Positions 4,320-38,270 of a DNA stretch of 64,000 nucleotides are shown piece by piece. A program made the position numbers and the translations under genes. The stretch is from Lytechinus pictus. Its lineage: Eukaryota. The DNA lies in contig NC_087245.1 of assembly GCF_037042905.1 (NCBI RefSeq), positions 22,446,001 to 22,510,000 on the forward strand. Reading direction: 5' to 3'. Within the stretch, counting starts at the first letter, position 1, and each line of letters begins with the position of its first letter. The notes under the pieces were generated by a model, which was given only the letters and a program-made list of their open reading frames with translations, ran no database searches and was not told the origin of the DNA.

Positions 4320-7300
4320 GTGAGACACGAAAACTTTGTATCAGCCATAATCGGCACACAGGTATCACAGGCGCACGCGATTCTTGTGTGCACTGGTCGC
4401 ATAGTCTTCTGACACATTTTCGTGATAGCATAGTGCTAAATGCACATGAGCTTAGTCGCTGGATATTTTGCATTGGTTGTGCCACGTTGTAAACAAGGGT
4501 AGCAGTTATGGCGTTGGTCTGAAAAGTAGGATTATCCTTTATAATATATACAATTTTACGATGATTTCTCCACATATGGCAATTAAAAAACTGGGATTTT
4601 CCAGGCCAGGGCACCCACGGCTACATCTCAGCTGCCGACTACAGAATAATTGAAGGCACGGCGCATTATTTCAACAAATAACGTTAATTTATGAAAAATT
4701 AATACGAGGACTTACAGAATGAAGTCCTCCTACGAAACTTACAAAACGATGTGAAGTCAATTCCTCATAATTTGATGAATATCCCTCAAAATGTGTCATT
4801 TAACTCAAGCGTTGATTTTTCTTCTCGTTGACAAAATACGAAAGCCACCTTTCTAGCTCTCAAATTTTTCGTCTAATGAGCGAGAGAGGGCGCGCGATTT
4901 ATCTTCATATCAAAGACACTACAATTGAAAGACTAGACACAGAAATTATCTTACACGTAAATCGATGCAAAGCATTACGCGAAGTCGGCAAAGTTTCCAA
5001 TCTTTTTACTGTAAAGACTTTGGTGGAACGTTAATTGACAAACGAACGGTAGCACTTGCGGGGCTTTGTTCAAGGTACATAGAATTTTCTACATTTTTTG
5101 TTTAATTTGTCATCGTTTTGAATATTTTCCAAAAAGTATTATCGTCAGCAAAAATAATAAAAAAGTATGTTTTTTAAGTTATTGCATTTATTGGGGTCTC
5201 TATTTTATCAAACAATTATTGGAATTGCGCATACAATAAATCATGAATCTAGTTTAAAAAATACCACCAAGCTGAATTAAGGTTGCGAACTGTATTAGCG
5301 CCACCAACGACCTTCCTTTTATTTCCGTGGAAGAGACGTGCGAAGCCACTTTCCAGGCGGAGGTAAGCGATTTTGCTCTTTTTTTTTTTAAAATTAAAAA
5401 ATATGTTAAAAATTGATAAAGGAACGCTTTCTACCAGAAAAAGCCCTGGTGAGTAGCGGAATGGTTTCGGCTAATATCATTCACGTTATGAAGCGATGTT
5501 AACGACAACTCTAAAATCCACTACAAAAACACGTTGGTTGTGCGAGGTTCGTAAAGCATATATACTAACCTCGCAATAGTGTGAGTGGGCCAGGGCTCTT
5601 TTTTAATTTCAAAATCCAGGCCTGAGCCAAGGTAGCCTGGGGTAGTCTTGGGTAGCCAGGAGGCTTCTTGAGAGTAAAAATCATTTACTAACGTATGCTT
5701 ACTCTCAATGAAGCCAGGGACTCCTTCCTATTCATCTGCGTGTACCGCCAAAAAATCTGAAACTTTCGCCCCCAAGATTTCTACTTTCCTTCTAAAACAT
5801 CTAGCCATAAATCATGTACATGGGATAAAACTTCATTTCCGACATTTCTACGCTCTCGGTTTTATTTTTAAACAAGAATTCATGAAAAAATGAATAAAAT
5901 ATTGTGAAAAGACGGAAGAGACTTGCCCGATGTTTACACCGCCATCTTGTTTCTTATTGTACTTCCCCAACGTTACGCGACGCTAGCGTCCGTAACTTTG
6001 GAGACAGTGTTTCATCTTTGTTTTTCCCTCAGTGTTGCCATCCAGCACGAATCACAGATCAGTGAGTCTGACTTAGCCAGGCGGCTTCTTGAGAGTAAAA
6101 ATCATTTACTAACGTAGGCTTACTCTCAATGAAGCCAGGGAGTCCTTCCTATTCACCTACACGAAGGACCCCAAAACCTGAAACTTTCACCCCCGAGATT
6201 TCTACTTTCCTTCTAAAAGATCTAGCTCTAAATCATGTACATGGGATAAAACTTCATTTCCGACATTTCTACGCTCTCGTTGTTATTTTTAAACAAGAAT
6301 TCATAAAAAAAATGAGAAAAATATCGTGAAAAGACGGAAGAGACTTGCCCGATGTTTACGCCGCCATCTTGTTTCTTATTGTACTTCCCCAACGTTACGG
6401 ACGCGAGCGTCGCGTAACGTTGCAATTGACAAATCAGGGGGAAATTGAATCAATACGAAATTTGCAAAAGGCCAGTTGACTTACATAAGATAATCCGTCG
6501 GTCATGAGAGCCAATCGGACTAATGTGTAAAAGTCAGGACAGCTTAAATTTGACCGAACTCGCGATCGTTACTTCGGGTCATCGCAGTTCTAGTTTCCAA
6601 CAATCCCAATTCCTAGACTCTTAGCAGGTCTCTTGATTGCTAATAACCTCTGTGAAATTACATGTTTCAAAGTGAAAACACGCAGTTTACGTCTGGTCGG
6701 TTAGTCTACTAACTATTGCTCAGCTATACAGTCGACCTCCCAGACATAACGGCGTCTATTACATAAAACTCCCAGGCATGCAGCCAAGTGAAAGGCTTGA
6801 ATTCCTTCTCTGTTCTGAGATTAGCCTTGATTTCCCCATTATTTGTCAATGAAAGGTCGCTTTAAAGGGGAGGTTCACCCAACAAAAAGTTTATTGTGAA
6901 TATAACAGAAAGAAGTAATGAAAAATATTGGTGAAGGTTTGGGGAAAATCAATCAAAGATTTAAAAATTTATTAGAATTTTTTATTTGTGATATCATATG
7001 TGAGCAGATTCCCATGTATCGTGAATTGAAAAATGTCATTTTCTCAGAAAAATGAAATGGGTTTTAATGTACATACATGTACCTTCAGTCTATCAGCAGA
7101 CAAATTATTTCACACCTGCTCCGGACTGAAGAAAGTTTTTAGTCATTATGAACCATTGAATAATTGAATTTAATGCATTTTATATTACATAACATATGGG
7201 ACAGCTCCTTGTACATGTATTTGAATAACTTAATCTTAAATGGATTTTCCTCAAACCTTTACCAATGTTTTAAAATATTTTTTCTTGTACTTTTGCAACA

Positions 7301-10300
7301 ATCTTATTTCTCTTTATGTTGTCTGTAAGCATCTACATGTACTGTTGAAAGGAGGAGGCGCGGTAACTCAGTTGGTAGAGTGGGGGATTCGTATTCCGGT
7401 GACTCGGGTTCGATTTCCACTTGGTGCGCTAGTGCCCTTTGGTAAAGCATTAATCCTCAGTACCAAGTCCTTTGGAGAGGACCTTAAGCCGTCAGTCCTC
7501 TGGTTGCTTGCTTACAAGCATTCATGCTTTCTTAGCAATCAGGTAAAAAATCACCACCAAACCAAACCAACCTATAACCTTGAACTTGTTTTTGTTCATC
7601 TCGAAGTCACCCATGAATAAAGTAATTACTCAAGTAATCATGTCTGTTTACAGAGGCCAGATCAACTGGAGAGGGTGGAGCAGTTCAAGAGAAGGGAAGC
7701 GAGGAAGAAGGCATCGGTAGAAGCCCGTCTAAAGACTGCAATGCAATCTCAGCTTGATGGGGTTAGGACAGGATTGACGCAGCTGAGTAGCGCCCTCAAT
7801 GGTGTCAAGGAGATCAGGACATGGTAAGATTAAAACATCTTCTAATGTATAGGCCCTACTCAAGTCAATATACCAAAGGGGGTGGAATGATTCTACTGGC
7901 TCTAAAGATAAATGTCAGTTGTGGTAAAAATTTAAAAAATGATTTTGTACCAAATCCAATAAAATGACCACCCGAGTGTCAGTATAAATTAATAAAAAGA
8001 TAGGTGCCAAAGAATTCTGGAAGGGATTGTGTAATTGCTGAGAAATTATCCCCCAGATTTCATGATTTCACAAAGTTCAGTTTTGACCAGATCTAGATTT
8101 AGGATGATATGGAGACAATTGATCTTGTGTTTACAGACTTTCTCATGCTGTCAGTGTTTAATGCAACTAGTTTCATTTATCTTTAACTGTACCTCTGTAT
8201 TCTCTTCTACATGTATGTATATTTTTATTTTGTCATATGTACACAGGGTCCTTGAAGTTGATGCAAAGTATAGAGAGTGTGCTGAGTTGACATCGACATT
8301 AGGTGAGGTCAAGGAAGTAGCAAGCCAGCACAGTCAGGTAAATAATTTACCCTCATTGAACCACAATATCAATGAAAAGCATTTATGGAGTTAAGATAAG
8401 CTTTCGCTATTTCATAATGGTCAGATTTCATACGTATTTCCTGCTGTGGAGACGTCCATAATGCTTGCTTTTTGCTGCCAGATGCTTGGGATTACTACAT
8501 GTACTCGCTCAGCAAATGTGAAATGTCTCGTACTTAACCCACCCACCCCTATAATACTAATAATTGGAGGCATCCATGTTATACGACACACATACAAAGA
8601 ATGAAATAACAGTTAGACGAAGAAAAGGATTAATTCGCTGGGATAAGATAATCATTAGATTAGATTATCTTGGGTTCAATACTTTCACACAGAAAGAAAG
8701 AGACATTTCTTTGAATCATGAAACTGCTTTTGTTGGAAAAAATTACAACCCTTTTCATATTTTTGTTGATCCCTTTACAATCTAATATCAACTTGTGCTG
8801 CAAAAGTCTGTGTGCTCTTAAAGTTAATTTATAATGTAGAAAACTGTTTATTCATGTTTGCACTAGATGGTAAAGTGCATTACATTAATGTACAGTACAA
8901 GTCAGCAATCTCTGAGTACACGCCAACACACGGCGAGCCATCCAACCCGGATGCGTGTAACACGCACGTGTACACTCTCACAGGCGCCAATATTTCTCCT
9001 TGTGTGTCATTTTGTTCTCGTGTCAATAGCGTGTTACGCTTCAATAATTTGATGATGATGATGGAGATGACAGTGATGGTGATGATAACCCTATAAACAA
9101 TGATAATGATGCTCAAGGATGGTGTGACAATAATGATAGTGTGATGATAAGGACGATAATGTTAATGCTTTGCTGATGATAAAGTGATGGTTATAATAAT
9201 GGTGGTTACTTATATAGCACACAGGTCCATTTTCTGAAAATGTGAATGAAAAGTATCTTTTATTTTAGGTTCAAATTAACTGTAAGAATACTAAAAACAA
9301 TTTTGAATGATTAAAAGCCTTTATTTTGTGTAAAATCCAAATTAGTTTCAATCGTAGCCAATCGTATGATTGCTATGATGTACGTCATTACGACTAGATA
9401 TTAAATCCGCTTTTATTCTAATAAGGGTAATAGCTTACTTGTAGTCACAGATTTGAACATACATGTAGGTATTCGTTTGATGATTTAGAACATTACACAA
9501 TAAGATATTCCATGTCTCAATGTTAGCAACAAATTCTACTTCGTTTTATTCCAAATCGGGTCGCAGACCAATCGTAAGGTGTGCAATGGCCCTTAGGTAA
9601 CTGATGACAGCATCGTAATAAATTCAATTCAATTAAAAAAAATAAGTGGTAAATGATTTCTCATCAAGACAAACTCAAACCAAGACTTAAAGTGGATCCA
9701 TTTACGGCCTTTCCACCTATGAATTGTCATCCAGACGCTGGATATAAATGACGGAGCTGCAACTCTCTTCAGTTTGTGCAATGTTCGACCCCTATACTGA
9801 GAACAAACGGCCAATAAATCAGGTGATTGTACGCCTCCATATCCATGGAGAAATTTGCCCCCTTCATCGTAAAGTTGCTGACATCATAATGTGACCCCTG
9901 CCATGGACATACCTTTTCCATGCTGGTCTAAGTCTATCCTGAACTAGCATTCACCTTTCTCTCTGAGATCTGCTATTTTGTTTGATACTTACTTTCCTTA
10001 GCATAATGTTCTGATCCACACACAATATACACATTATAATATGATAAGAGACATTATCTCCATCTCTCAATTATAGATATCGATTAAGCTATTATCCCTT
10101 CACACCCCAACCCTGCATATTTCCTTCTAATTTAATACTCAATTCTGAACTTGAGAGTTGATATCTAATCTTCTAAAATAATTGCCAAAATCCCCCACGG
10201 GGGGGGGGGGGGGGGGGGGGGGGCACTTCCAGTCTTACATTGACGAGTGGATACCAGGCGTGACCAAAGAAATGCGTTACAAGGATTTTTTTCAACATTG

Positions 10301-13300
10301 GGCACGTTACGCACTTAACGTAATAAGGGTGTCAAAAACACTAAAATACCGAAAAAGGGTATATATTTTGCTAGGAAAGCTACAGTCAAATTTGGGTAGA
10401 AACAAGACTAAAATTCTTTATAAAGGTTGTACTTTTTGACACATGCGTTTAGAGTCCGACTTGAGCGAGGTCATAGTCGCTTCTGGTATCCACTCGTCAA
10501 TGGAAGTGCCTGCCCCCGGGCGAAAATCTCTATTGTCTGTCTGTAAAGGTGAAATGGGGACTGTAGGGAGGGGAAGGAATTGGCTATATTAACTCCTTGT
10601 TCTAAATTACATTAAAAATTGCTCTCGAAGAGGAATCAGGCGTGTACCCAGTTTTTTTTTTGGAGGGGGTCGTCTGAAAAAAAAAAAATTAGGGAGGGAG
10701 CGTAGTGACCGCGGGTAGGGGAAGCTAGTGTTTTTGCTTTTCATATAAAGTGGAATCATGTTTGGTGCAGACTCCATACCAGAGGGTGTTTTCTCTTCTA
10801 TATATAGATATATATTCTCATGGGCGGATCCAAGATTATCCAAGGGGGGGGGGGGGCACATTTTGCCGAAGAAAATTTGACATTAAAAAAAAAAGGTCCT
10901 TGGTTGTGTATCAACAACACCTTCCCATTAAAATATTTCCTGTGACTTTCAGGGGGGGAGGGCACACTTGTGTAAGAATGGCATATTTATTGTACATTAA
11001 AAAATTTGATTATGGCTCTCAAAGGGGGGGGGGGGGGCTGGGCGCATGGCTCAGATGTGCCCCCTGGATCCGCCACTGAACAAAGAACACTTTCTTTTGA
11101 GGTTGCCCAAAAATAGGGGCTGGCTTGCCCCCCCCCTTGGACCCACCCCTGATTCTGCCAAAGAAAACTTTGTTTCTTTTCATGTCTTATATTTAAAAAA
11201 GTCATTATCTTATCGTCACCATCATCTTCATCCTCCTCGCCATCATCGTCATTACCATCACCATCATCCAATGGCTGACCAAGGGACATGTATGTCGGTT
11301 TGGAAGGGGGGGGGGTATTCATAGAGTGTATTATTCACTTAAGCCATGACACAATAAAACATCCTTCTGTAACTGCGGTCTATTCCCATTGTTAGCTGCT
11401 TATTGTAAACGTGGGAGATGGTGTTGTCACAAGCAATTCATTTTTTATTTTAGCACAAAAGCCAAATTCTAAAAAAAAAATATTTTACATAAAAAAATTT
11501 CAACAGGAAAAATTGATAAATGGTGTAATCCTGGAAGTTTTGTTTAAATATAGAAGGAAATAAAAATGTACAAGGTACATGTAATGATAAATGACTAATT
11601 TTGCCCTTGTGATGGCAGTATTACTGAATGAGTTGTTTAATAAATCCTATGTATTTGATTACTTTAAATAGGAAGGGCTATAAAATATTCAGCTCTTGCA
11701 GGTCCTTTTGTTGTAGGTTCCAGGTTCTATTAACAGGTGGAATAAACACTTAGCATTCCAAGACCCGCCTGAGGTCTATTGAGTGTACAGTGCACCAAAT
11801 TGCTGTGCACAGAGAGTAGGATCACTATCATTTTGTTACTCTTTGAGAGAGGTTGTGTTCTGAGGAGCAAGGAAGAAATGACCTTCAGTTTTTATTAATT
11901 TTGGAGGAGTTTTCCTCCCCACAATGTTGGTGAGTCTACATGTACATGTATTTGATATTTTATCAGTATATTTCAGCTAAAAAAGGAGGAAATATTAGAT
12001 TTTTCAATTCTTCAATGAAAATCTATCATTGTATTACAGATAGTTACATGACACAAAGTACAATTGGCATACAACTGGCTTAAAAAACTGACATATGACA
12101 GATGTAATCGCCTGAGTTACATACAAATGTATTACAAAACTAAGTATTCCCACAAAGTAATAGTCGGCAAACTCGATCAAAATTATTGTTTCATCTCGCA
12201 TGGGTAATTTCCAAGCAAATTATATCTATTTTGTAAAAGTTGTATCGTAATTCACATATAAAATGATTCAATTATTATCTAATGTCTCTATCATTTCCTG
12301 AAATAATTCAATTGTATTGGAATACGCAGTGTGTATTTCACTTTATTAATATTGCTACACAAGACGATGTACAGCACTTTAAAGTTGGCAGATGACGGTT
12401 AAAATCACCTGGGCAACATAAAGTGGCAGTACATGTACAAAACTAAGTATTCACACAAAGTATTGATCAGCAAACTTAATAAAACATATTGTGTCATCTG
12501 GTATGGACTATTTCTAAGAAGATTTTTTATCAAGAACAAAATTTTACATGAAAATGTTAAGGTAATTTATTTATATACATAATTGATTACTTATGACCTA
12601 GAAAGGGCTGGCTTAATTACTTCCTCATAGAATTTGAATTGTATGGGCCTATTTATATTTCACTTTAATAAATGTTGTTGCACATGAAAAAGTACAACAG
12701 TCTAATAATTGGCATATGATGATTACATGAAAAATCAAGTTACGTAAAATGGCATTACAAAAGTATTCACACAAAGTAATGATCAGCAAACTTTATAAAA
12801 ATATATTGTCATTTGATATGCTATTTCCAAGCAGATTATATTTTTTTTATCAAGAACAACAATTTAGATAAAAACTTGTAAGGTAATTTATGAAAATAAA
12901 TGGGTTAACTATGACCTAAAAATTGTATATTGTGATTAGAGTTTCTCTATCCAATGAAAGTCACACTCGGCGTCACATTGTATGTCTTTTAAGGTTCTGG
13001 TTTTGTGCATCAATCCTTTTCACGCACCTCTTCCAGACTTGTTCCTCGCATTCCCCACCTGTCGGGCACAGAGAAAATGTTGCACGCCGAATGGCCCCCA
13101 TCCTTTCTGGGTCCATAGAAAGATTCCTTACGCCCATCACATTTTTGTTGATGTGTTCTTCTTTCATGAACAGCAGGCTCACAAGTCTCCTAGAGACATT
13201 TCTGTGGCAAGGAGCAAATGGAAGCATAGAATCCATCACCTTCCTTGTTACTTGCATTGTTCTCTTGTCGTCAACTGTGACAAGCTCCCGCCGCCTTGTG

Positions 13301-16300
13301 ATCTCATCCCTAATACGGACCTGGTTTGATCTGGAATTAGTCTGGCTGTGTAGACTCTTCAAGTGATTCAATTCCATCTCCAAGTGGTTGATCTGTAGGG
13401 TTTTCCTTCTGTCATTCTCCTGTAACTCCACAATCTTGTCCCACAAAATACCCCCAGCCAGGTCTTCAGCAATGCGCGATTGGACTGCAGGGGGTATGGG
13501 TGCTTCCTGTTCAGGTGGTGGTGGTGGCGGCCGTTGAGGTGCTGGTGGTGGTGGCGGTCCTTGAGGTGGTGGTCCTCGAGATGGCGGTCGTCTGGGTGGT
13601 GGTGTTGGTGATCGAGGAGCTGGTCGGAGTAATGGCCCTCTGTGTGGTGATGGTTGTCGCCGAGGTGGTGGTAGTGGTCGTTGGGCTGGTGGTGGTGATC
13701 GAGGAACGGTTGCTGATGCTGCTGGTTCTCAAGCTGGTGGGGGTGATGGAGGTGGTGTTCCTGATGCAACCAGTTCTCGAGGTGCTGATGGGGGTGGTGG
13801 AGGTTGACGAGGAGCAGTTGCAGTTGGTTTTGGCAGTACTGGTACTGTTGGTTGATCTGAAAGTGATGCCAAAGTCTGAGGTGCTGGCATTGGTCCCATT
13901 TCCTCTCTACTTTCCCTCATCTCTTCCAATCTCTGTAAGCCCAATGTTACGTGGTCTTCGATTGGTGTTGTTTTGGTGTTGTACATCATAGCACTTTCTT
14001 TGGAACTGACAGAAGGACGTGGGGCCTGTCCGGCGATCATGGTTGCTTTCTGTGCAAGGAGACAATGAGAGAAGTAGAGTAATCAATTAAAGATGTTATA
14101 TGAATTTTCAAACACAGGTATGTTATTACCACAATTAACCTCCCTTTAATCGATATAAATATCTAAATTAAGTGTATTTATATATCACTTTATTTGCAAA
14201 TCTGCACATTAAACGAATACAATATACGCCCAGGACACTTCCCTTTGAGAGAAAATGCAGGGCAATAACATTCAATACAGAAGAAAAAAAAATCTTACAA
14301 TACAACACAATAATCAACATATCACATATATCTAGAAACACCAGTAGGTGCCTCTGGTGGACCGGAACAGGCACGACGCAAGCTGAGACCGGTCAAACGC
14401 CAGCCAAAGAGCCGCTGATGTCCTTGAAAAAGCGTCATGTATGGCGCCGTCCCTCATAGCACCGAGGCATGCAGCCTCGACAGTCGTTGCAGTAGCAGAC
14501 CATGTATAAAAAACAAATGAAGGCCAAATGTAAATAATGACTTATTTAAATGAGTGGGGTATACCAGGAAATGCACCGATGTGAGCAGAGGGAAGGAAAA
14601 TGGAATCCGTCTATGCACTCGAAACACGGAGAGGGAGTTTGTTTTCCACATATTCAGATATTTTGAGTAGTAAATGACAAAAGATGACACAATGGCCAAT
14701 TTTCATATATTCTCTGAGAATCCTTTGTGCGGTGTGGCACTTTTACACTTAACACTCGGCTAGAGCGAGCGGACATACAAGCTCCGATCACTTGTCACTT
14801 TTACACTTGTCACTCAATAAACAATGCACACACCCCGCGTGTCAAAGATCAGAATACAGGAAAACATGACAGAGTGCGTTCTGGTGTGATGTTCGAGTGT
14901 CAATACGCTGCGACGGCCGGAAATGGCTCGCCGCGTGTTGGCGTGTACTCAGAGATTGCTGACTGGTACTGTATGTGGTATACTGCACTCCTAATTGTTA
15001 ATGAATCCCTATTACCATATTTTCTATATAATAACTAACTGAGAATCTTTCTATTTGAATTAACTTCTTTTTTTTCTATTAGCTTGCAGCTGCTGTTGAG
15101 AATTTAAAGCACATTTTCACTGTCCCAGAAAATGTCAAGAAAACAGAGATGTACATTCAAGAAGAGAGGCTGTTGCATGCTCATAAGGGGTAAGACCTTT
15201 CTATCTGAAGACTTTTCCTTTCGTTTGTTGTTTACAATTAGAATGTTGAGTTTCGATGAATTTGAAAATGAAGTTTGATGAAGAGAGAAGTAGATCATCA
15301 GATAAGTTCCATTTTCTAGTACTGCAAGATACTTAAAATTGTATGTATTTTTTAGGTTGATGGAGCTAGAGAGTTCACGTGATGACCTTCTGTATGAATT
15401 ACACAAACAACCATCAGACAATCCGACTGATAACCATGTAAGTTTATATCAAGATGTTATACATGTAAATCCATCTTTCAGGAATTTCTTGCAGATGTCA
15501 ACTGGTAGAATTTATTAGCCTTTAATGATTAAAAAAATGTGTTTTTGGATCATTGGTTTAAAATCATGGTTTATGCAGATTTCATGTATTTCTCTTAAAT
15601 CATGCAATAAAATCTTATCCACAGGATGTTAGATTCATGCTTGAGTTGAGTCCACTCTTTTTTATTTGAATAAAGAGTAAACTCATTAGTTCAAAATTGT
15701 TGGGTCACTAATTCTCATACCATAGTTCATACCATAACAGCAAGTTTGAATTCAATGCCCTGCGATAATAGTGACTGTTCATTATAGAACATATCCACCC
15801 TGAATCAAGTGTGATTAATGCATGATATCTACGTCTACCATGGTTTCAAGCCACATATCATAAACCACTTTTGTTAATGCAGGCAATTTTATCTTGTTGG
15901 AGGCCTTGAGCAATGGTAATTAAAAAAAAAATGTGAAGCATTTGCTGCAGCACTTTTGTCATAGTTTTGACAGTAAATTGTGATATTTTTGTGGTATTGT
16001 AAAAAAATATCATAAAAATTCACATTATGCTGAATATTTCCAAACTCATGTCCTATTGATGATGTACATTTAAATTTTCATTTCTCTTTATCCTTATTTA
16101 CAATGAAAAAGTGTACTAATTGCAATGTAATTGTTGATTGATTCTTTTTATAGATGTGAACATTTTATATCCCATTCCTTCCCTTGTCATGACTTTAGAA
16201 AAATTGTTCTTTTCTGTTATTTCCTAATTTTATTTTCTTTGTTTAATTACAGTTACTGCAAAGATATTTCTCAGAAGTAGAGAAGCTATCAGTAAGTGCA

Positions 16301-25300: not shown

Positions 25301-28300
25301 ATGGGAGGTTGTGGGTTCAATTCCTTATTCAAGCCATACAATGCCTTAAAAAAGGTGACCTAGGCATTCATCATTTGTATTAAAGATGAACAGCATGTGA
25401 AGAAAATTCCAGGGCCCCGTCTTACAAAGAGTTACGATGATCCGATCAATCACAACTATCAACGGCCAGCAACGTTAACATCGAAAATGCATGTTTGTTC
25501 AAAATATTTTCTAACTATGATGTATTTTCATGCATTCATTGTTTTCTTGAAAATTTACTATGCTCCTCTCTGTTTACAAAGGACATTGTTCAAATTTCAT
25601 GGAGAAAAAAGGTTATGGTATGGATGGATTTCCATAGAGTTACGATCGATTGGATCAATCGTCACTCTTTGTAAGACGGGGCCCAGGTATACTAATGAAC
25701 TCAAATACTTTTACAGCCACAAAACTTATGAATATTTTGTGAATCACACATTTGACTTACTTTATAGTCACAGCCCATTTTATCTGTTAAGTCGATGTAG
25801 TTATGTCTTAGTAGTACGGCCACTGAATGCAACAGTTCACTTAATTTGACTTTTCGATTCAAAGAAAAATGCCACAAAAATGCAATTTTTGTAGAGTTTT
25901 GAATAATTCTGTGCAAAGCTGTGTGTGGAAATGTTCATTCTAGCTTAATACAAAGTAGTTAAAATATTGGACCAACTCTCCCATTCCTTAATATTCCGTA
26001 AAGTTCCATTCATATTCATCCTTCTCTATCCAGGTTGCCATTGTAAACAACTTCCATTCCTTCATTGAATTCACCAAACAGCTTGAGGTACGTAGAACTA
26101 TTTTACCAAACAATGGTTCAGATGAAATGGAATATATTCAATACATGATTAAAATTGATGAGGAATTGTGTATTTTTGTTATGTTAGAATGATAATATTA
26201 ATTCGATAATTTATGATTAAAGGAATGATGATGACAAGCGATTGAAAGTGCATGAACAGATTCAAAGTTTGTATTGCACACATTAAATATTGAATTAAAC
26301 ATTGAATAAGTCATACGTAACTTTATAAACAGCTTCCTGAAACAGACCCCTGCTCTGAGATGTCAAATAGTATCAATGACTGTTTTTGTCATTAATTTTT
26401 GTTTTCTCATCAGAGAAGGCATCTGAAGCTACCGGTAGGAGAGACGGGATCAACCTCAGTGTTCCAGAGTTTGATTGGTGCATTCAATAAACTAGCAGGA
26501 GAGAGGTAATAGATAAACAATTCTGATTGGTTGATATTGTGTTTATTGAACAACATGTGCATGCAACTGTGTTTCTGATGGGCTATTTCAAGTTTGTGTG
26601 ATTAATTCCTACTTTCTAGTTATGAAGACCAGGGGTGGTATTCTGAAAACGTTCTTATCTTTGTTCTTATCTTTTATCTTATCTCATTGAGATAAGAAGA
26701 CGCTAAAATCATTGCAAATTGGTATTCTGAAAATCTTCTTAACGCGTTCTTATCTTTGTAAGGACTGCCTCCTTCTTATCTTCAACACGCCCATTTTTAG
26801 GATATTACCAATCAAAATGCGCTTTATATTGGCAGTTTAACCAATAGAAGCGTTCCTTATGTCAAGAGAATATCATGGGCGCTGCGCGTACACTGTTTCT
26901 GGCGCATTGCGCGAAATAGGCAATTTATACGCAATGACTGATTATTAATTCGAGACACGTGCATAAAATAAAAAAAGAAAGTAAAGAAAAAAGTAAATAA
27001 AGCAGGTGGGTGTTTCATAAAGCTGTTCGTAAGATACGAATGACTTTACGAACGACTGGTGATCCTTTCTTGTGCTCTGTGGTATCCCTATGTAATTGAG
27101 TTATGACCTAAGAAGTAAGAACATGTTTCAGTCGTGCGTAAAGTCGTTCGTAACTTTACGAACAGCTTTATGAAACACCTACCAGGTAAGAATAAAGAAT
27201 GAAATATGAAGAAAAGAAAAGAAAGTAAGTAGGTAAGTAAGAAGACAGAAAAGTGTCAGAATGAAGCAGAAATTTAAAAAAAAGATGAAAGGAACAAAGC
27301 AGAAAATAATGAAAGAAATAAAGAGTAAACAAAAGTAAGCAAGCAAAAAAGCAACAACTTAAAAATACAAAATAAAGAAAGAAAAACGAATGAATAAAAG
27401 AAGGAAAAAGAAATAGAACGATTATCAATGATAAAGCGAGGAAGAAAAAATAAAGAAAGGAAAGAACCTTAAAGGAAAAAAAGTAAAAGGACAAAATAAA
27501 AAGATTAAGAAAGGATAAATGAAGTAATAAAGAACCGAAAAAGAAAAAATTGTTAGAAAAAACGAATGAAAGACAGTAAGAAAGAAAGAGAAAAAGAAGG
27601 AATAAAAATGTAAAAAGTGAAGGAAAAGAGAAAAAAGGAAAATGAAACAAAGAAATAAAGATTAGAGAGAAAAAAATAAAGGAAAATTAAAGCAAAAATA
27701 AAGACTACAGAAAGATAAAAGGAAAGAAAGGTAAATTCAAAGAAAGAAAAGGAACGAAAAGGAAAAATAAAAAGTCAGGAAAAGTGAAGAATAAATAAAA
27801 ACAAAAACGAAAAATATTAATGGAAAGAATAAAGAAAAAGATTTTTAAATATTAATAGAAGAAAGACACAGAAAAGAAAGTAAAGAAAGAGAGCAAATAA
27901 AGAACGAACAAAAAAAGAATGAGCAAAATAAAGAATAAAATAAAAGAAAGAAAGTAAATAAGACACAAGAGTGTCAGGAAGCAGAAATAAACAAAATGAA
28001 AGAAAGAACAAACGAACGAACGAAAACAGAAAAAAGAACCCAAAAATAAAAAGAAAAAATAAAAGAAAGAAAATTAAGGGAAAATACAAATGAAGGGAAG
28101 GAAGAAAGTAAGAAAAAGGGGGAAAGGGAAAAGCATATATAAAGACGAAAGAAAACAAATAAGGAAGAAATAAAAAGATAAAAAAAAAGTGAAGGTAGAA
28201 AGAAAGAAAAAAGGAAGGGATGAGAGAAAAGGGCAAAGAAAAAAAGCACAAAGGGAAAATAAAAAAGGAAGAAAGATGAAGAATAAATGAAACAAAGCAA

Positions 28301-31300
28301 AAGAAAATTAAAAGATTCACAAAGAATAAAACAAAAGATATAAATGAAGAATGAAAGAAAGGAAGAAAGACAGACAAATAGAAAGGAAGAAAAAGAGAAA
28401 ATAAATAAAGAAAGAAAGAAAAAGGGATAGAAAAAAGAGACGGGCAAAATAAAGGGTGAATGAAAGAAAGGGTGGGAGGAATACTTGTGGGTACTTGTTA
28501 CTACTAGTGACCATCGAGTTTGAGCAAGAAAGAAAGTGGACATCGTGAGATGTGATACCCCTCTAGCTATCTTAAATATTATCATAAATATCGTGAAAGA
28601 TAAGAAAGAGAAAAGATAAGAACGTTTTCAGAATACCACTTATCTTCATTTTGTTATCTTTTTAGCGCGCTTTTGTATTATATGCGCGAGTAATACATTT
28701 ACGCGCTCAGCATAGGATGTTTAGCAAGATAAGAAAAAGATAAGAACATTTTCAGAATACCAATTTGAGATCGTGACGTAGATAAGAACAAAATTAAGAT
28801 AAGAACGTTTTCAGAATACCGCCCCTGGTCATTAGATTGATTTGTGAAAGAAATTGTATCAATGTGGTCAATTTTAGTTTTAAAAAAGGAGGAAAGATTC
28901 ATTGACAGTGCAGTATTGTGTATTGGCATCAGAATATAGTAATTCATTTTATTAAAAAAAAGTTATCTAGCATTCTAAAAAAATCAATCATTTACAGAGA
29001 ATAAATGTGATTTAAAAGTTACAATATATACAAAGGGATAGCGAAGATTATGAACTATACTATTGAATGAACTGTATACAAAGGATTAGGTAAAATATAA
29101 AATTAAATTTTAAATACTAGTTGTATGATTTGTGTTTAAAGATAAAAACCAGTTGTTGTATCGATCTCAAAATGAGTTCAAACAGAATCCAATTAAATTA
29201 CCACCAAAGTGTTTGTACAGTATGTATATATGTGCCAAATGGCTCTGGAAGAAAATGCGTTATTGCTGAGAAATGAACAATATAAGCACGGAATTTCATC
29301 AAATGCTGGCTATTTTTTAAAGCAATATTAATACACTGTCTCACATGCTTTCCTGAGTGAGTGATCATCAGAATTATCAGTTTTAAGCTAAGATTTCATG
29401 ATTTCACAAAGTTTACATTAATGTTCCAGGTCTATATATATGATAATATGGTGACAATTAACCTTGGTTTAAAAAATACTTTCTCATGAAATGATTGTTT
29501 GCTGCAACTACTCTCTTTTATCTTTAACTATGTTTCAGAGGCAAAGTATGATGCTGACTATAATTCCTTTTTTTTCCTTTTTACAGTCTTGGAGATCTTT
29601 TATGGGAGATGTTTTTAGATCTTGAACCTCATCTCAATCAGATCATTACAAGACCATGGTAAGTTTAGCTCTCACACTTTTGATGAGATAATAGAGGTAC
29701 TTTAGTGGTGGTACTATCATTAAGTTATGACTGTTAAGTAAGACCACACTTTTCTGATGTGCCATGTAGATTTAGATATGCCAACTCATTCACCACATAC
29801 AAATTTCTCCAGTAAAAAAATTATCACTTCCAAATAATACTAAAAAATAATTTTGTTAAAATGACGAGAAAGAGGTATTGTGAGTAAACAATAAATTTCA
29901 ATAAGTTTCTAGTGTAATATTGTTTTATTCATGAATGATAATAATTAAAGATAAATTATAGCATTACACTGAAATTTTGACGAAAATTTCTATTTTTTTT
30001 AATAAGTATTTTTGTTTAACCCACTGGGATGGTCTTTGTTTTCTCTATGCTATACAGGTTTCAGCACCCTGGTTCCCCTGCCCTTGATACTGTGTGTATC
30101 ACCATAGAAGATTACTACAATGATTTCATCCATCTTAGACCTAACTACCTTGAATCACTGGTGAAGGAACTAGAGAAGAGAACTGTTACTGCTTACGTCA
30201 AGGGGATGCTGGAGAGGTAAAGCCTCAATCAGATATTGTGCACCAAACCCCAGCAAATTGTTTTTATTGTGTTGAGAGATGAATTCCCCCACTTACACTG
30301 GACAAAGCTTCAAGCTTCAAGAATCACAAACAAATTGCCCGCAGTTTCGCAGAAAAATATATGATTTGATTTTTTCCATTATAATGTTGTGATTTGTGTT
30401 ACATGTATATGATCATAAGGATTTCATTTTGAAGCAAGAAGTCACGTTGAATGACTCAGGAGTTTCTCAGTGCAAATTATTTTGTTTGTACTGTGAATTT
30501 TATTGGTATTCACTTTTTTGGCATCTTTCGTTTTAAAGATCAATAATGAATCCTGAATTTAATTGTAAACTTGGTATTGATTACTTAGACTTCTTGAAAT
30601 AGATATTTGAATTATATATTGATCTATCAATTTATAATTTTCAATTGATATTTGCAATCGAGTACAAATAGATTTTGTAAAACACCCCTTCTTCCTGCTA
30701 ATATCATTTCAGACGGATGACATTTAAGCTGTATGAGGAGCGTAAGGAGGCTGCTGAGAAGATTACCAGAGAGAGTGATACACTGGAGAGGCTCTTTGCA
30801 CGTCTTAAACGGTCTGAGGATAGAGATACGGTAGGTTACCGGGAACCTGTTTCATAGAGCTCTTTGTAAAGTTATGCAGGAATTTATAAACGACTGGAGT
30901 ATGAATTGCTTAATTGTGAGCCCAATTTTTGTTAGTTTTTGAAAGATGTGATTGTTCCTAATAATCTCTTCTGAAATGTGGCAAAGTACATCAACATAGT
31001 TGCTAGCTATGAAGCGTCATTGTTATAAGGTTTTTCTCATGCATTATGTCCTCCCCCTCATCCACAAAACATCCTCAAAATCCAGAATGCTTTTAGAAAT
31101 AAACTTGTATAAAAATATGCTTCTTCTTGTCGGACAGCTTTTCTTTCCTTCTTTGTTCTACTTCTTGATTGTAAAGATAACTATATTTCACATTATGTTT
31201 GTGTGCAATGATATTCATATTTTTATAGGCCCCTTCCCAATGTGAGGTGATTCCCCTGATGACAGAGGTCATTCGTATGGAAGATACATCCATGCTATCT

Positions 31301-33110
31301 CTTGAGATATCGGTGAGTTCATTTTGATCCTGAAAGGTCAGGGCAGGATATCCCCAACAATTTGCATGGTTTTTGCCAGAATGCACAAATTATTTCACAA
31401 AATAAAATGACTTTCTTTGCTTTGAAGTGTGGCTAAACTTTTTACAACGTACGGATAAAGCATTGCTGCACTACATGTCTTTTAAAGGGGTAATTAGTTA
31501 AACCCAGATGTAAGTCCAGTCTGAAAATTTTTCGTCCACATTGTTATGGATGCTTGATTTCAACTTCCTTGTATAATATTTATGACAGAGGTGAAATTAC
31601 CAATAAACTGAAATCATTTCATGCACTCAATCTAATTTTCCTCTTATTTCATTGTCAATTTCATTTAAAAATTATGTGACACTCTTCTCTGCAGGGTTAA
31701 AATGAGTACTTAGCAGTGAGTCTGTGAGAGTGTACAGTCTAAGTTAACCTACGGTTAACCTCATCAATTCTGTTTGAACGCCAACCATGTATGACATGTT
31801 TTCTCCTTATAAATGTTATTTTTGCGCTTTATTTTTTCCAGACTTTGGTTCATCGTTATGCAGACATCAGAACTGATCATCTTGTCAACCTTCTTGTCTC
31901 AAGAGGTGACTTCACTGTAGCAACTGCAAGACAGGTCAGTTTGTCTGCAATCTGGGTCCCGTCTTACGAAGCGTTACGATTGATCCGATCAACCTCAATT
32001 CTATGGAAATCCATCATTGTCATCATATTTTCTACAAGAAACTTGAACAATGTCCTTTGTAAACAAAGAGAAGCACACTGAGTTTTTAAGAAAATAATGT
32101 ATGAATACAAATATTTAGAAAATACTCAAACAAACATGTGTAATAGATGTTGACGTTGCTGGCTTTCCATAGTTGTGGTTGATTGGATCAATCGTAACTT
32201 CTTGTAAGACAGGACTCTGAGCACATCTGTATCTCATCGAATTTCATAAACCAATGTTTTTAGTATTGGTTTCCAATTATATTTTTGTTACATAGCGTGT
32301 TATTTTTCTTACTTTTACTCTTCATTACCATATACTGTATTATGATTGTTATATGTACATGACACTCTCAAAAAGCAGTTTTTATGTACTTGTGAATCAC
32401 CCTATCCTTAAAGGAAACAAGTAAATAAATGATGAATATTTCTTTCTATATTATAAAAGGATTTTGGCGAGATGGTTCTCTAAAGCATTCTGTCATTTCA
32501 AACACATATTTTTTAAAATATGCTTTCAGGAAATACATATGTTTATAATTTAACATAATATTAGGTATGCTGATATATTTCAACAGTATTAAGTGTAACA
32601 ACAAGATATTTTCATTAACCATATATTAATTGTTGACTTTGATGGATTTCTAAAAGAGCCAATTTCTTGTTCAAATGTCAATTTATTGTCATATGCATTT
32701 TTTATCACAGCCTTTGAGGGGATAAGTTATTTTATATAATTTCTACCCATTTTCTTAAATTTATAGGTTATTACTAAATAGGTTCATTATTGCGGACTGA
32801 AATAATCGCTAGAGGGTATTCATTTGTCTCGCAATCTACTATGGTCAACAAGGAAATTCGTTGAATACCCTCTAGCGATTATAGGTTATTGTATTGACTT
32901 TTGTGCTAATTCGCTTCGTTTATGGACAAAAACGCTGTAAATGCTCTGTTCAGTCATAATGAATTGGCAATTTGAAGGTGTTTCATAGTGTTTTAAAAAT
33001 ATTTATTCTGTTTCCATTACTTTCCTCAGGTTGTGGTAGATACGCTAGGCGAAGATGACCAGAGGCAGATGTCTACCAGAAGTATCTTCTCAGATATACC
33101 AGCTAAATAA
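4242..33110 (+). CDS. EXOC3: Exocyst complex component 3 (Sec6), complete 24-exon gene model, 742 aa
   Basis: Manually spliced exons (listed below) join at GT-AG sites with compatible phases into a 2229-nt ORF. Peptides such as [59 protein letters not shown] and [14 protein letters not shown] match Sec6/EXOC3 as I recall it. Confidence 0.96.
5653..6422. repeat. Direct duplication, two ~350-bp copies at a 421-bp period
   Basis: TAGCCAGG.GGCTTCTTGAGAGTAAAAATC... occurs twice; ORFs 5708 and 6129 are near-identical. Confidence 0.92.
7357..7572 (+). mobile_element. tRNA-derived SINE
   Basis: A box TAACTCAGTTGG, B box GGTTCGATTTCC, unrelated body and (ACCAA)n tail. Confidence 0.8.
7654..7823 (+). 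CDS. EXOC3: EXOC3 exon 2 ([12 protein letters not shown]...EIRT)
   Basis: tttacag acceptor, gtaag donor, conserved N-terminal peptide. Confidence 0.95.
7903..8187. mobile_element. Kolobok-like MITE, internally deleted (AAAGATAAA..CAGTTG family)
   Basis: Homologous to copies at 29137-29527 and 34234-34626; ends in ATCTTTAA. Confidence 0.65.
8247..8337 (+). CDS. EXOC3: EXOC3 exon 3 (VLEVDAK...SQHSQ)
   Basis: acacag acceptor, gtaaa donor, phase-compatible. Confidence 0.92.
10194..10520. mobile_element. MITE with CCC..GGG ends nested in the BEN element
   Basis: Inverted GCACTTCCA..TTGACGAGTGGATACCAG arms; imperfect 8-9 bp flank duplication (CCAAAATC/CGAAAATC). Confidence 0.7.
10819..11078. mobile_element. 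hAT-like MITE (CATGGGCGGATCCA...TGGATCCGCCACTG)
   Basis: Inverted ends and poly-G tracts; no clear TSD. Confidence 0.7.
12050..12925. repeat. Three degenerate ~300-320-bp tandem units downstream of the BEN ORF
   Basis: AAGTATTC.CACAAAGTA.T..TC.GCAAACT recurs near 12142, 12446 and 12761. Confidence 0.75.
12973..14503 (-). pseudogene. Two-exon gene for a CxCxxC / Pro-rich / coiled-coil / BEN-domain protein with three in-frame TGA stops
   Basis: Exon A 14503-14342 ([11 protein letters not shown]...) joins in phase 0 to exon B 14049-12973 (polypyrimidine-cag acceptor). ORF-track entries 13729..14040 and 12973..13446 share one frame separated by a single TGA. The C-terminal [16 protein letters not shown]...[10 protein letters not shown]...[10 protein letters not shown] fits the BEN-domain pattern. 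Exon A is less certain because its donor is weak. Confidence 0.75.
15083..15189 (+). CDS. EXOC3: EXOC3 exon 4 ([12 protein letters not shown]...HAHK)
   Basis: attag acceptor, gtaag donor, conserved peptide. Confidence 0.95.
15356..15437 (+). CDS. EXOC3: EXOC3 exon 5 ([14 protein letters not shown]...)
   Basis: tttag acceptor, gtaag donor. Confidence 0.95.
16253..16291 (+). CDS. EXOC3: EXOC3 exon 6 ([13 protein letters not shown]), 39 nt
   Basis: ttacag acceptor, gtaagt donor, phase 0-0. Confidence 0.88.
16717..16826 (+). CDS. EXOC3: EXOC3 exon 7 ([13 protein letters not shown]...RIIEREE)
   Basis: ccatag acceptor, gtgag donor. Confidence 0.95.
18788..18901 (+). CDS. EXOC3: EXOC3 exon 8 (IDKK...PGRPKNWR...)
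   Basis: taacag acceptor, gtaag donor. Confidence 0.93.
19353..19458 (+). CDS. EXOC3: EXOC3 exon 9 (IEASQLEDR...MWLVRHLE...IVK)
   Basis: tctcag acceptor, gtaag donor. Confidence 0.95.
19591..20282. mobile_element. Harbinger-like MITE with many AAGCAATTGCTT subterminal palindromes
   Basis: GGCCGTATGCATAAA.ACAAGCAATTGCTT TIRs at both ends. Confidence 0.85.
20686..20995. mobile_element. Harbinger-like MITE
   Basis: TIR GGCCCGTATTCTGAAGTC; 3-bp AAA duplication. Confidence 0.88.
21073..21156 (+). CDS. EXOC3: EXOC3 exon 10 ([14 protein letters not shown]...)
   Basis: ttatag acceptor, gtaag donor. Confidence 0.94.
21821..21894 (+). CDS. EXOC3: EXOC3 exon 11 ([20 protein letters not shown]...)
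   Basis: cttcag acceptor, gtaag donor. Confidence 0.93.
22391..22486 (+). CDS. EXOC3: EXOC3 exon 12 ([13 protein letters not shown]...QQ)
   Basis: tttacag acceptor (third of three tandem copies and the only one followed by an open frame), gtaag donor. Confidence 0.9.
22970..23036 (+). CDS. EXOC3: EXOC3 exon 13 ([12 protein letters not shown]...DTK)
   Basis: tttacag acceptor, gtatg donor. Confidence 0.93.
23686..23778 (+). CDS. EXOC3: EXOC3 exon 14 ([18 protein letters not shown]...FQMIEQN)
   Basis: ttatag acceptor, gtgag donor. Confidence 0.95.
24148..24241 (+). CDS. EXOC3: EXOC3 exon 15 ([11 protein letters not shown]...)
   Basis: atgtag acceptor, gtcag donor. Confidence 0.92.
25186..25256 (+). 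CDS. EXOC3: EXOC3 exon 16 (AIRDYK...FFQYM)
   Basis: aatcag acceptor, gtaag donor. Confidence 0.92.
25261..25345 (+). mobile_element. Truncated tRNA-derived SINE head
   Basis: A box TGGTTCAGTGG, B box GGTTCAATTCC; no intact acceptor stem. Confidence 0.6.
25413..25683. mobile_element. Harbinger-like MITE
   Basis: TIR GGCCCCGTCTTACAAAGAGT; CAG duplication. Confidence 0.9.
26034..26087 (+). CDS. EXOC3: EXOC3 exon 17 ([18 protein letters not shown])
   Basis: atccag acceptor, gtacg donor. Confidence 0.92.
26414..26505 (+). CDS. EXOC3: EXOC3 exon 18 (RRHLKLP...AGE)
   Basis: catcag acceptor, gtaat donor, phase-compatible with neighbours. Confidence 0.85.
27006..27182. mobile_element. Nested Harbinger-like MITE
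   Basis: TIR GTRGGTGTTTCATAAAGCTGTTCGTAA; CAG duplication; second copy near 36565-36750. Confidence 0.88.
27190..28480 (+). repeat. ~1.3-kb A/G-rich low-complexity tract
   Basis: Direct reading; source of the spurious Phe/Leu-rich ORFs on the - strand. Confidence 0.95.
29137..29527. mobile_element. Kolobok-like MITE
   Basis: TTAA-AGATAAA...TTTATCT-TTAA ends. Confidence 0.78.
29587..29658 (+). CDS. EXOC3: EXOC3 exon 19 ([16 protein letters not shown]...)
   Basis: ttacag acceptor, gtaag donor. Confidence 0.94.
30058..30216 (+). CDS. EXOC3: EXOC3 exon 20 ([23 protein letters not shown]...)
   Basis: atacag acceptor, gtaaa donor; overlaps ORF-track 30029..30220. Confidence 0.95.
30713..30830 (+). 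CDS. EXOC3: EXOC3 exon 21 ([17 protein letters not shown]...)
   Basis: tttcag acceptor, gtagg donor. Confidence 0.94.
31229..31312 (+). CDS. EXOC3: EXOC3 exon 22 ([28 protein letters not shown])
   Basis: ttatag acceptor, gtgag donor. Confidence 0.92.
31842..31934 (+). CDS. EXOC3: EXOC3 exon 23 ([14 protein letters not shown]...RGD...)
   Basis: ttccag acceptor, gtcag donor. Confidence 0.94.
31955..32216. mobile_element. Harbinger-like MITE, same family as 25413-25683
   Basis: GGTCCCGTCTTAC...GTAAGACAGGACT ends; CTG duplication. Confidence 0.85.
33030..33110 (+). CDS. EXOC3: EXOC3 terminal coding exon 24 ([26 protein letters not shown])
   Basis: cctcag acceptor, TAA stop at 33108-33110. Confidence 0.9.
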   Translation, partial: VVVDTLGEDDQRQMSTRSIFSDIPAK

Positions 33111-35561: not shown

Positions 35562-36144
35562 AGGAGAATGAAACTCTTGGAGCAAGTTAGCTTTTGTGAA
35601 AGCAGAAAAATCAAAGAATAAGATCAACAAAACTTTGAGTAAAATAGGACTAGCAATAAAAGAGTTATGAGCATTTGAATGTCGAGATCACTAATGCTAT
35701 GGAGATCCTCCCATTGGCAATGCGACCAAGATCTGTGATGTCACACACGTACAACTCTCCCATTCGGACACTGAAAATATACCCCAAAACATCTCTTTTT
35801 GCTCATTCTAATCATATGACAAACGATTCATCAATGATATAATGTTGTGAAACCTCTGTACTTGTCATCTCATAAAGAAAACACCTAACCTTGTGATAGA
35901 CTCTATAAAAGTGAGAATATAAGTGAAATAAGTACTAAAGTAATGAGGGAGTTGTACGTGTGTGATATCACAGATCTTGGTCGCATTGCCGATGGGAGGA
36001 TCTACATGGCACTAGTGATCTCAATATTCAAATGTTCATAACTTTCTTATTATTCATTCAATCTTCCTCAAACTTTCAACAATATGTTTCTTTGATTTTT
36101 CTCTTTGATATGTTGTCAGCTAGTTTCAAGGGTTTCATTCTCCT
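35562..36144. mobile_element. Kolobok-like MITE with long inverted arms
   Basis: TTAA duplication; AGGAGAATGAAAC TIR; ~200-bp inverted arms. Confidence 0.88.
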
Positions 36145-37298: not shown

Positions 37299-38270
37299 TT
37301 TTTTGTCTCACCTGCATAGCAGAGTGAGACTATAGGCGCCGCTTTTCCGACGGCGACGGCGGCGGCGGCGTCAACACCAAATCTTAACCTGAGGTTAAGT
37401 TTTTGAAATGACAGCATAACTTAGAAAATATATGGACCTAGTTCATGAAACTTGGCCATAAGGTTAATCAAGTATTACTGAACATCCTGCCTGAGTTTCA
37501 TGTCACATGACCAAGGTCAAAGGTCATTTAGGGTCAATGAACTTAGACCATGTTGGGGGAATCAACATCAAAATCTTAACCTAAGGTTAAGTTTTTGAAA
37601 TGTCATCATAACTTAGAAAATATATGGACCTAGTTCATGAAACTTATACATATTAAGGTTAATCAAGTATCACTGAACATCCTGCATGAGTTTCACATCA
37701 CATGACCAAGGTCAAAGGTCATTTAGGGTCAATGAACTTTGGCCGAATTGGGGGTATCTGTTGAATTACCATCATAACTTTGAAAGTTTATGGATCTGAT
37801 TCATGAAACTTGGACATAATAGTAATATAGTAATCAAGTATTACTGAACATCCTGTGCAAGTTTCAGGTCACATGATCAAGGTCAAAGGTCATTTAGGGT
37901 CAATGAACTTTGGCCAAATTGGGGTATTTGTTGAATTACAGCCATAAATTTGAAAGTGTGTTGGTCTAGTTCATAAAACTTGGACATAATAGTAATCAAG
38001 TATCACTGAACATCCTGTGCGAGTTTCAGGTCACATGATCAAGGTCAAAGGTCATGTAAGGTCAAAGAACTTTGGCCACGTTGGGGGTATTTGTTGAATT
38101 GCCATCATATCTCTATAAGTGTATTGGTCTAGTTCATAAAACGTGGAAATAAGAGTAACCAAGTATCACTGAACATCTTGTGCGAGTTATAGTAGTTTTC
38201 AAAATCAGCACTGCTGCTATATTGAATCGCGTGATGCAGGTGAGACGGCCAGAGGCATTCCACTTGTTTT
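37299..38270 (+). mobile_element. Helentron/HINE (DINE-1/Tsp-like) non-autonomous element with internal tandem repeats
   Basis: Sits between T runs; subterminal IR GTCTCACCTGC (37305) / GCAGGTGAGAC (38236); (GGC)n microsatellite; ~5 core repeats of 160-195 bp; CTTGTTTT end. Confidence 0.8.

Follow-up and report, generated by a model that had tools for sequence, protein, structure and literature searches.

An apparently decayed BEN-domain gene inside a 6-kb terminal-inverted-repeat insertion of Lytechinus pictus

Introduction

CAGT as the first bases is typical of Tc1/pogo transposons, whose transposases are of the DD(x)D/E type; C(2)C and H(3-4)H motifs mark the transposases of the CMCT clade. 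EnSpm/CACTA elements carry subterminal repeat arrays at both ends, and En/Spm encodes in its second gene the DNA-binding protein TnpA, the model for the BEN helper proposed below. PIF/Harbinger elements use a Myb/SANT helper, and canonical Harbinger elements duplicate 3 bp. Non-autonomous Tc1/mariner and pogo elements (IS630-Tc1-mariner) show a TA duplication (PMC7325037) and short, near-perfect terminal inverted repeats (TIRs); the extra open reading frames described for this group in the literature consulted are those of the ciliate Tec and TBE elements, and none of them encodes a BEN protein. The CMCT clade, broadly taken, has 5'-CA..TG-3' ends and target-site duplications of 2-5 bp, and includes the ESTA elements, described from rust fungi, which duplicate TA (PMC12730594), as does PHISTA (PMC12730594 section 3.1.4). 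EnSpm and its animal member ENS1_Cis have CAC..GTG ends (PMC12730594, PMC6004678), and Kolobok combines a TTAA duplication with RR..YY ends (PMC9587614).

Several animal transcription-factor families arose from transposon DNA-binding domains, including CGGBP1, BED, CENPB/Brinker, Myb/SANT, MADF and FLYWCH, and BEN is not named among them in the corresponding portion of the Codebook source (PMC11601247). The TnpA of Tn3 recognises transposon ends through a BEN-like fold (PMC9579193). The literature searched, with Repbase Reports outside its scope, yielded no description of a BEN gene within a eukaryotic TIR transposon, and we did not find an earlier description of a BEN gene paired with ends of the type found in the window analysed here (the whole stretch of 64,000 nucleotides from L. 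pictus).

Results and discussion

Terminal inverted repeats and target site

The element spans positions 8893..14971 (6,079 bp) and is bounded by 49-bp TIRs (Table 1). The length, two mismatches and CAGT start given for these repeats in the first-pass annotation were confirmed: left and right TIR are identical at 47 of 49 positions, or at 49 of 51 once the flanking TA is added, and the longest inverted match with at most 2 mismatches measured 51 nt, far above the best of 25 nt (mean 17.5) in 100 shuffles of positions 8001-16000. No further TIR copies were found within the 64-kb window, and the ends folded no better than shuffled sequence. TA, claimed with them as a duplication, is present at both ends, but the flanks read ..TAATG/TACAGT on the left and ACTGTA/TGTGG on the right; since TG adjoins TA on both sides, TACAGT ends with a TG duplication are equally compatible when judged from one site. 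Among 15 of 197 joints no empty site was seen, the flanks being barely covered, so that this speaks neither for nor against one.

Table 1. Features of the element and its surroundings (positions in the window)
Feature	Position	Strand	Remarks
Host exon upstream of element	8247..8337	+	GT follows at 8338
Left TA, probable target-site duplication	8891..8892	.	Alternative: part of a 51-bp TIR, with TG duplication at 8889-8890
Left TIR	8893..8941	+	49 bp, begins CAGTAC
Nested high-copy repeat	9228..9584	.	Approximate bounds set by loose ends (9228, 9584) and depth; summed X4 depth reaches 52,094
Nested MITE-like repeat	10195..10520	.	Contains an inverted repeat (10238-10257 / 10483-10502); approximate bounds
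Cluster of nested G-run repeats	10636..11140	.	Common in genome; bounds approximate
Nested dispersed repeat	11598..11882	.	Occurs also within longer unrelated contigs
About three diverged direct repeats of about 305 bp	12115..12922	.	Downstream of BEN stop; 68-75% alike; also in organism B contigs
BEN pseudogene, long exon	12973..14049	-	Acceptor AG 14051-14050; first in-frame ATG 14040; stop 12975-12973
BEN domain with N-terminal helix and beta-hairpin extension	12976..13323	-	Pfam match about 13191-13006
In-frame TGA	13729..13731	-	Breaks BEN gene upstream of BEN domain
Candidate upstream exon or 5' leader	14341..14503	-	Recurs in related copies; putative, without protein match
Two short repeat pairs, right end only	14738..14814	-	11-bp pair, 14814 and 14799; 13-bp pair, 14808 and 14750
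Right TIR	14923..14971	-	49 bp, 2 mismatches to left TIR
Right TA, probable target-site duplication	14972..14973	.	Directly outside right TIR
Host exon downstream of element	15083..15189	+	Same strand as Sec6 match; RNA depth present

Transposase and superfamily

No transposase family was matched by any of the 114 stop-to-stop reading frames of at least 30 aa in the element, bearing out the earlier statement that none was recognisable; BEN was the match of one frame, another hit an unrelated family weakly (E 0.018), and the remaining 112 had no match at E 0.02. A transposase domain was likewise absent in 92 of the 94 protein matches (93 proteins scanned, P0002-P0094 minus P0086, plus P0095), and the related, viral, metagenome and prokaryote contigs examined held neither an autonomous partner nor a second TIR pair. 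The description of a TIR element whose sole recognisable cargo is a BEN gene is supported, with the correction that this gene is broken.

The ends look like Tc1/pogo, and the cargo looks like CMC/EnSpm. The near-perfect TIRs (47/49) and their CAGTAC start, matching the CAG(T) expected of Tc1/mariner/pogo, agree with the non-autonomous members of that group, as a TA duplication would under the TA reading; the 6-kb length, the BEN gene and the missing transposase do not. TA with CAGT ends had been called typical of Tc1/mariner-type elements; TA with CA..TG ends is not enough to identify Tc1/mariner, as the CMCT clade holds the TA-duplicating ESTA elements (PMC12730594). The CA..TG ends and, under the TA reading, the 2-bp duplication are shared with the CMC/CMCT clade as well, but are not diagnostic of it either. 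Unlike EnSpm and ENS1_Cis, the element has CAG..CTG ends, and it differs in the same base from ESTA, for which 23 of the 23 sequences shown begin with CAC. EnSpm/CACTA is further unlike the element in its subterminal arrays: neither end has one, and the two short repeat pairs at the right end are not shared with the left. If the parent did combine two genes, one of them for a helical DNA-binding protein, it would resemble PIF/Harbinger, and PHISTA would share the TA duplication, but the putative helper is a BEN protein without a Myb/SANT match, no transposase is present and the duplication is 2 bp rather than 3 bp. Kolobok differs in both duplication and ends. Overall, we give Tc1/pogo-type ends about an even chance, CMCT a smaller though still substantial one and any other origin a low one.

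The BEN gene and its fold

On sequence and modelled structure, the cargo carries a BEN domain with the BEN fold. The Pfam BEN model (PF10523), a check proposed in the first-pass annotation, matched the translation of 13260-12985 with E 2.2e-06 and 28.2 bits, above the curated cut-off of 23.2, and a profile built from relatives matched the BEN4 domain of BEND3 (E 1e-05). A first folding attempt with 5 sequences (pLDDT 66) produced no usable structural match; the BEN domain model reached pLDDT 96, and its five best structural matches among 48,161 chains were all BEN chains, with BANP at the top (Z 11.0, rmsd 3.4, 105 aligned) and the next match at Z 5.1. The exon encodes, in order, a Pro-rich linker, a predicted long helix and the BEN domain before the stop. 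In its fold and in the C-terminal position of BEN after a low-complexity region, the gene is like host BANP, BEND3, BEND6, NACC1 and Insensitive/Elba, from which it differs in its sequence (about 17% identity to BANP), its location inside a TIR element and its broken frame. Of the antisense spliced gene proposed earlier, the antisense BEN domain was recovered; what could be delimited is a single long exon (14049-12973) with an in-frame TGA, and its splicing, which the strong acceptor at 14050 suggests, is unsupported by RNA.

The BEN gene of this copy is, as its sequence reads, a pseudogene that is evolving close to neutrally. The 24 BEN differences listed come from the 40 best-supported of about 1,140 entries and are not a random sample; 9 of them are silent and 9 lie at third positions, against a silent fraction of 0.26 under neutrality (P 0.14). 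The end branch of this copy in the tree is 0.19, compared with 0.044 for the closest relative, and no RNA reads covered the BEN domain in the one RNA run compared (X10). Given the broken frame and the lack of RNA over the domain in that run, a working BEN gene is apparently not being spread by this copy now. The same in-frame stop and missing RNA speak against a conserved host BEN gene that is nested in the intron and merely flanked by two unrelated MITE ends, a reading we regard as very improbable. A conserved starfish two-BEN gene among the more distant matches would suit it, but close protein relatives come only from L. pictus and a few short contigs, the private letters of this copy are missing from the organism B contigs that cover the domain, and TA lies immediately outside both TIRs.

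Related copies

The sequence comparisons support membership of the BEN gene in a dispersed family that is not tied to one host locus. Two of 89 candidate proteins passed, both L. pictus models (75% and 74%), which may represent one locus, since P0002 and the DRAP1 model lie on contigs of identical length (49,738,939). In one of them, the gene model fuses the BEN exon to residues 71-241 of DRAP1 (87% identity; DRAP1 locus LOC129265208, LOC135154599), the pattern of a copy sitting in the intron of another gene. The subgroup that contains this BEN copy is linked to echinoderms and is marked by an additional helix and beta-hairpin. In the tree, the sister group (98/96) includes a Patiria multi-BEN gene with two models that are 97% identical and lie on separate scaffolds; an LSM domain is fused to one of them.

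On the right arm, organism A contigs align to 13768-14356 (92.7%) and 14191-14546 (91.6%), and organism B contigs to 13612-14110 and 14232-14546. Contig counts for organism B are 8 (14357), 11 (14605) and 3 (14890), compared with 2 over the BEN domain, and coverage rising toward the right end is what deletion derivatives would give. The left-end bin is covered in organism B; in the organism A runs it has zero depth, and the right-end bins reach only 3-9. No single contig among those related joins the BEN domain to a TIR.

It is improbable that ends and gene are unrelated, the TIRs being those of a small MITE that later received a distinct element with the BEN gene. The interior does gather insertions (summed depth above 1,000 in 9 of 24 bins in X4), and organism B sequence covers the ends far more than the BEN domain, but the window contains no other long inverted pair around the BEN gene, and the sequence from gene to right TIR is common to related copies with no obvious break. 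A genuine but lesser possibility than joint descent is that a Tc1/pogo-type non-autonomous element acquired its BEN gene either from the host or from a CMC element that bore one, as a passenger without a role in transposition. Such capture would agree with the TA (PMC7325037) and the CAGT ends typical of Tc1/pogo, with the movement of cargo genes between superfamilies in fungi (PMC12730594) and with the near-neutral decay along this branch. The related copies also match less well over the BEN region (81-85%) than over the 5' and intron portion (86-93%). This points to different paralogues or to a mosaic, and later capture would fit it too. Against it stand homology of the related copies that extends from coding exon through intron toward the TIR in two species, the short branch of the closest relative, and two alignments of related copies that end precisely at the stop codon (12973), a hint of past selection on the coding sequence.

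TIR patterns had no match in viral or metagenome contigs, and their only prokaryote match, a single 21-mer from a Neisseria bin, was taken as chance. Protein-scan matches at 31% identity comprised one viral locus, an unrelated phage-like region, and three metagenome loci whose match statistics equal those of the viral one; tblastn found no match in phages.

A proposed two-gene origin

The interpretation that we prefer, at roughly even confidence, is that the 6,079-bp TIR insertion is a dead non-autonomous element, which probably arose through internal deletion in a family that carried two genes, one of them for a BEN helper. A cut-and-paste transposase supplied in trans would have recognised the 49-bp TIRs, with TA as its insertion target. 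The BEN gene, whose transcription would start a short way within the right end and head inward, would be an old component of the right arm, and the parental BEN protein may have bound element DNA, by analogy with TnpA of En/Spm, pairing the ends or controlling promoter or chromatin. With the transposase lost, the BEN gene would have decayed and the copy gathered small insertions. The absence of a subterminal array as binding site counts against a TnpA-like helper.

We consider unlikely the more specific proposal of a two-gene Tc1/pogo-type family with TA target and CAGT ends, in which the BEN protein would help the element by binding its ends or by regulating it. If true, BEN genes would occur in at least two superfamilies of DNA transposons and, by landing in introns of host genes such as EXOC3, DRAP1 and possibly a starfish Sm gene, would seed lineage-specific echinoderm BEN transcription factors. 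Should the ends belong to the Tc1/pogo group, a helper gene would be added to a group normally without one in animals. Transport inside TIR elements would offer one tangible explanation of why BEN genes are spread so patchily; the single locus is of limited value here because the copy is dead and its parent unseen.

Interior of the element and host intron

Beyond the nested repeats (Table 1), the interior had no Rfam match, and searches of Pfam, the protein collection and the Atlas with the candidate upstream exon brought no match. A Cys-rich transposase N-terminus considered for this exon was dropped, as one cysteine is altered in a related copy. Recurrence of a TIR 8-mer twice inside the element was within chance (P 0.49). 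The motif TCTCWGAG, which recalls the BANP palindrome, occurred 8 times compared with 2.7 expected (6 in the element), but was chosen post hoc and failed a fair test.

The element occupies 6,079 bp of a GT-AG intron of 6,745 bp, which would measure 664 bp without it. The host gene is likely Sec6/EXOC3, a sea urchin exocyst gene: a Sec6 match at 30020-30217 (28.1 bits, slightly below the 29.7 cut-off) was the sole strong match in 55 frames, and the name also leans on what we take to be the EXOC3 sequence. The host exons searched one by one had no match in Pfam or PDB. The intron position and the nested high-copy repeats are both additions to the earlier description of the element.

Element ends and target site

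The insertion in the window is real: a TIR element, likely dead and non-autonomous, that holds a family-borne BEN pseudogene. Its TIRs are identical at 47 of 49 bases in inverted orientation, against a best inverted match of 25 bases in 100 shuffles of an 8-kb region, which bears out the 49-bp TIRs with two mismatches described in the first-pass annotation. This divergence (2/49; 95% interval 0.5-14%) constrains the insertion date just loosely, and the element is old-looking. The flanks read TAATG-TA/CAGT on the left and ACTG/TA-TGTGG on the right (slash, element end). The annotated TA duplication thus stands as far as TA lies outside both TIRs, but because TG stands outside TA on both flanks, the sequence of this single site may reflect either TA with CAGT ends or, fitting equally, TG with TACAGT ends. 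No empty site occurs among the joints listed (15/197), where the element flanks are barely covered. The window contains 19 occurrences of TACATGTA, of which 11 fall within 7074-15467, five of these in the element; TA+CA+TG+TA could be a scar of a CA..TG-ended TA element.

Coordinates of the element and neighbouring features in the window
Feature	Position	Description
Host intron	8338-15082	GT-AG
Element	8893-14971	6,079 bp
Left TIR	8893-8941	49 bp, directly bordered outside by TA
Right TIR	14923-14971	49 bp, directly bordered outside by TA
BEN pseudogene frame	14049-12973	antisense, preceded by strong acceptor
In-frame TGA	13731-13729	breaks BEN frame
TCTCWGAGA palindromes	9960-9968, 14711-14719	8 bases common to TIR
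Sec6-matching frame	30020-30217	same strand as host exons
Inverted pair	25438-25686 / 31952-32190	~250 bp each, ~80% alike
Inverted arms	35604-36102	161 bp, 82% alike, spacer 177 bp
Tandem array	37379-38165	unit about 170-195 bp
Minisatellite	42937-43557	21/41-bp spacing

The BEN domain and decay of its gene

The antisense frame encodes a Pro-rich linker and a predicted long helix followed by a genuine BEN domain, as the Pfam match (PF10523, scoring 28.2 bits where the cut-off is 23.2) and the fold of the predicted model (pLDDT 96, built with 51 sequences) confirm for what had been annotated as BEN-like. Among 48,161 chains, the five best structural matches are BANP, BEND6, Bsg25A, NACC1 and BEND3 (Z 11.0 to 8.6; sixth row 5.1); Foldseek also ranks BEN chains on top, yet none at E 0.001. 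None of the 114 element frames of at least 30 aa matches a transposase family, in agreement with the earlier failure to recognise one.

The BEN gene is dead in this copy. In addition to the in-frame stop, 24 differences (the best-supported subset of those found) distinguish the BEN region from that of related contigs, each holding across the three contig sets. Silent changes make up nine of them, a share compatible with the neutral 0.26 (P 0.14), and nine fall at third positions, far from 0.7 (P 0.001). The end branch of the window copy measures 0.19 compared with 0.044 for its nearest relative. In RNA set X10 (one sample, ~6% of reads examined), depth across 12959-13480 is 0, compared with 5.0 and 2.6 in host exon bins. 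The Pro-rich bin shows a depth of 5.2, read as cross-mapping because the adjoining bins lie at 0 and 0.07. The window copy itself is present in two contig sets of organism A (99.6% and 98.7% identity over 12104-13615).

A dispersed BEN family

The BEN gene belongs to a dispersed family, and a host BEN gene residing within the intron is very improbable. The two closest proteins are L. pictus models. One, XP_054759196.1, joins a BEN exon (residues 1-119) to the C-terminal part of DRAP1 (residues 120-306; 87% identical to L. pictus DRAP1), and a related copy therefore probably lies in a DRAP1 intron, the chimaeric model probably being an annotation artefact of intronic insertion. XP_063957402.1 may represent the same locus, as its contig has the same length as that of DRAP1.

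Related copies are 81-85% identical in BEN coding sequence (12973-13559) and 86-93% in the 5'/intron part (13612-14546). In organism A, identity is 84% for a BEN paralogue and 92-93% for 5' regions; in organism B, BEN contigs reach 81% and 85%, and 5' regions 86-92%. Organism B contigs number 2 at the domain, 8 at 14357, 11 at 14605 and 3 at 14890, with the left-end bin covered. Although summed depth does not equal copy number, this increase toward the end is the pattern expected of internally deleted derivatives. Depth in organism A is low at both element ends. No contig joins the BEN domain to a TIR. That ends and BEN gene stem from separate, nested insertions is unlikely.

In a tree of 103 domain rows (phmmer score ≥30, ≥55 matched columns; weaker rows omitted), the urchin BEN clade has a sister group (98/96) to which a multi-BEN gene of Patiria miniata belongs. 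The three-BEN models of this gene, P0004 and P0095, are 97% identical on different scaffolds, which suggests another mobile BEN gene, although they may instead be uncollapsed haplotypes. P0095 carries an LSM domain N-terminal to its BEN domains, and the gene is possibly mobile and seated in an Sm gene intron. The two-BEN proteins P0008, P0009 and P0096 (Asterias, Patiria) are kept across starfish genera; their N-terminus may resemble PRCC, and they could represent a domesticated BEN exon.

Relation to known transposons and possible mobilisation

In its proposed mode of action the element resembles En/Spm and Harbinger, TIR elements that carry two genes, one of them for a helper that binds DNA. 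EnSpm and ESTA have CAC ends (PMC12730594, PMC6004678; for ESTA, 23 of 23 sequences listed in the former), which the element lacks, so that it is a member of neither; it differs from Kolobok in target duplication (PMC9587614) and from Harbinger in duplication and helper type (PMC12730594 section 3.1.4). Under the TA reading, TA and TIRs are compatible with Tc1/pogo (PMC7325037) and CA..TG ends with broad CMCT (PMC12730594), both as candidate affinities, no transposase of either being recognised in the element. Repbase uses the first 11 bases of such elements, together with the length of the duplication, to class them (PMC4455052). A literature search, with Repbase Reports and the founding BEN papers outside its scope, found no paper that places a BEN gene within a TIR transposon of a eukaryote; BEN does not occur in the examined text of bioRxiv 2021.09.26.461848, and 'transposase' in PMC9233729 refers to ATAC-seq.

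The favoured reading, held at about even odds, is that the element was mobilised in trans and that its BEN gene is an old helper binding parent-element DNA. A transposase supplied in trans would recognise the TIRs and direct insertion at TA. The BEN gene, oriented inward from a point just inside the right end, would be an ancient family component, and in the parent its protein would bind element DNA and aid end pairing or control the element promoter. This role is likened to that of En/Spm TnpA, a DNA-binding helper. DNA binding is a property of BEN domains (PMC3510454), and a BEN-like domain recognises the inverted repeat in Tn3 TnpA (PMC9579193). No BEN binding site is demonstrable, because the element ends contain no subterminal repeat array for helper binding and a TIR motif recurring inside the element was rejected after failing a fair test. 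Passive capture, with the BEN gene carried as cargo, is a somewhat less likely alternative to such a helper. The only two TCTCWGAGA palindromes in the window both lie in the element, which is not significant in a fair test.

Host intron and neighbouring repeats

Without the element, the host intron would measure 664 bp; the left half of the element is largely later or foreign material, with summed depth above 1,000 in 9 of 24 bins across the element as a whole (read set X4) and five TACATGTA occurrences inside it. The flanking exons presumably resemble EXOC3 sequence, and a downstream frame matches Sec6 (E 9.6e-07, slightly below the cut-off). The inverted pair encloses this frame and therefore probably represents two separate dispersed-repeat copies, not a single element. 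Further along, the window contains MITE-like inverted arms, a tandem array and a GC-rich minisatellite.
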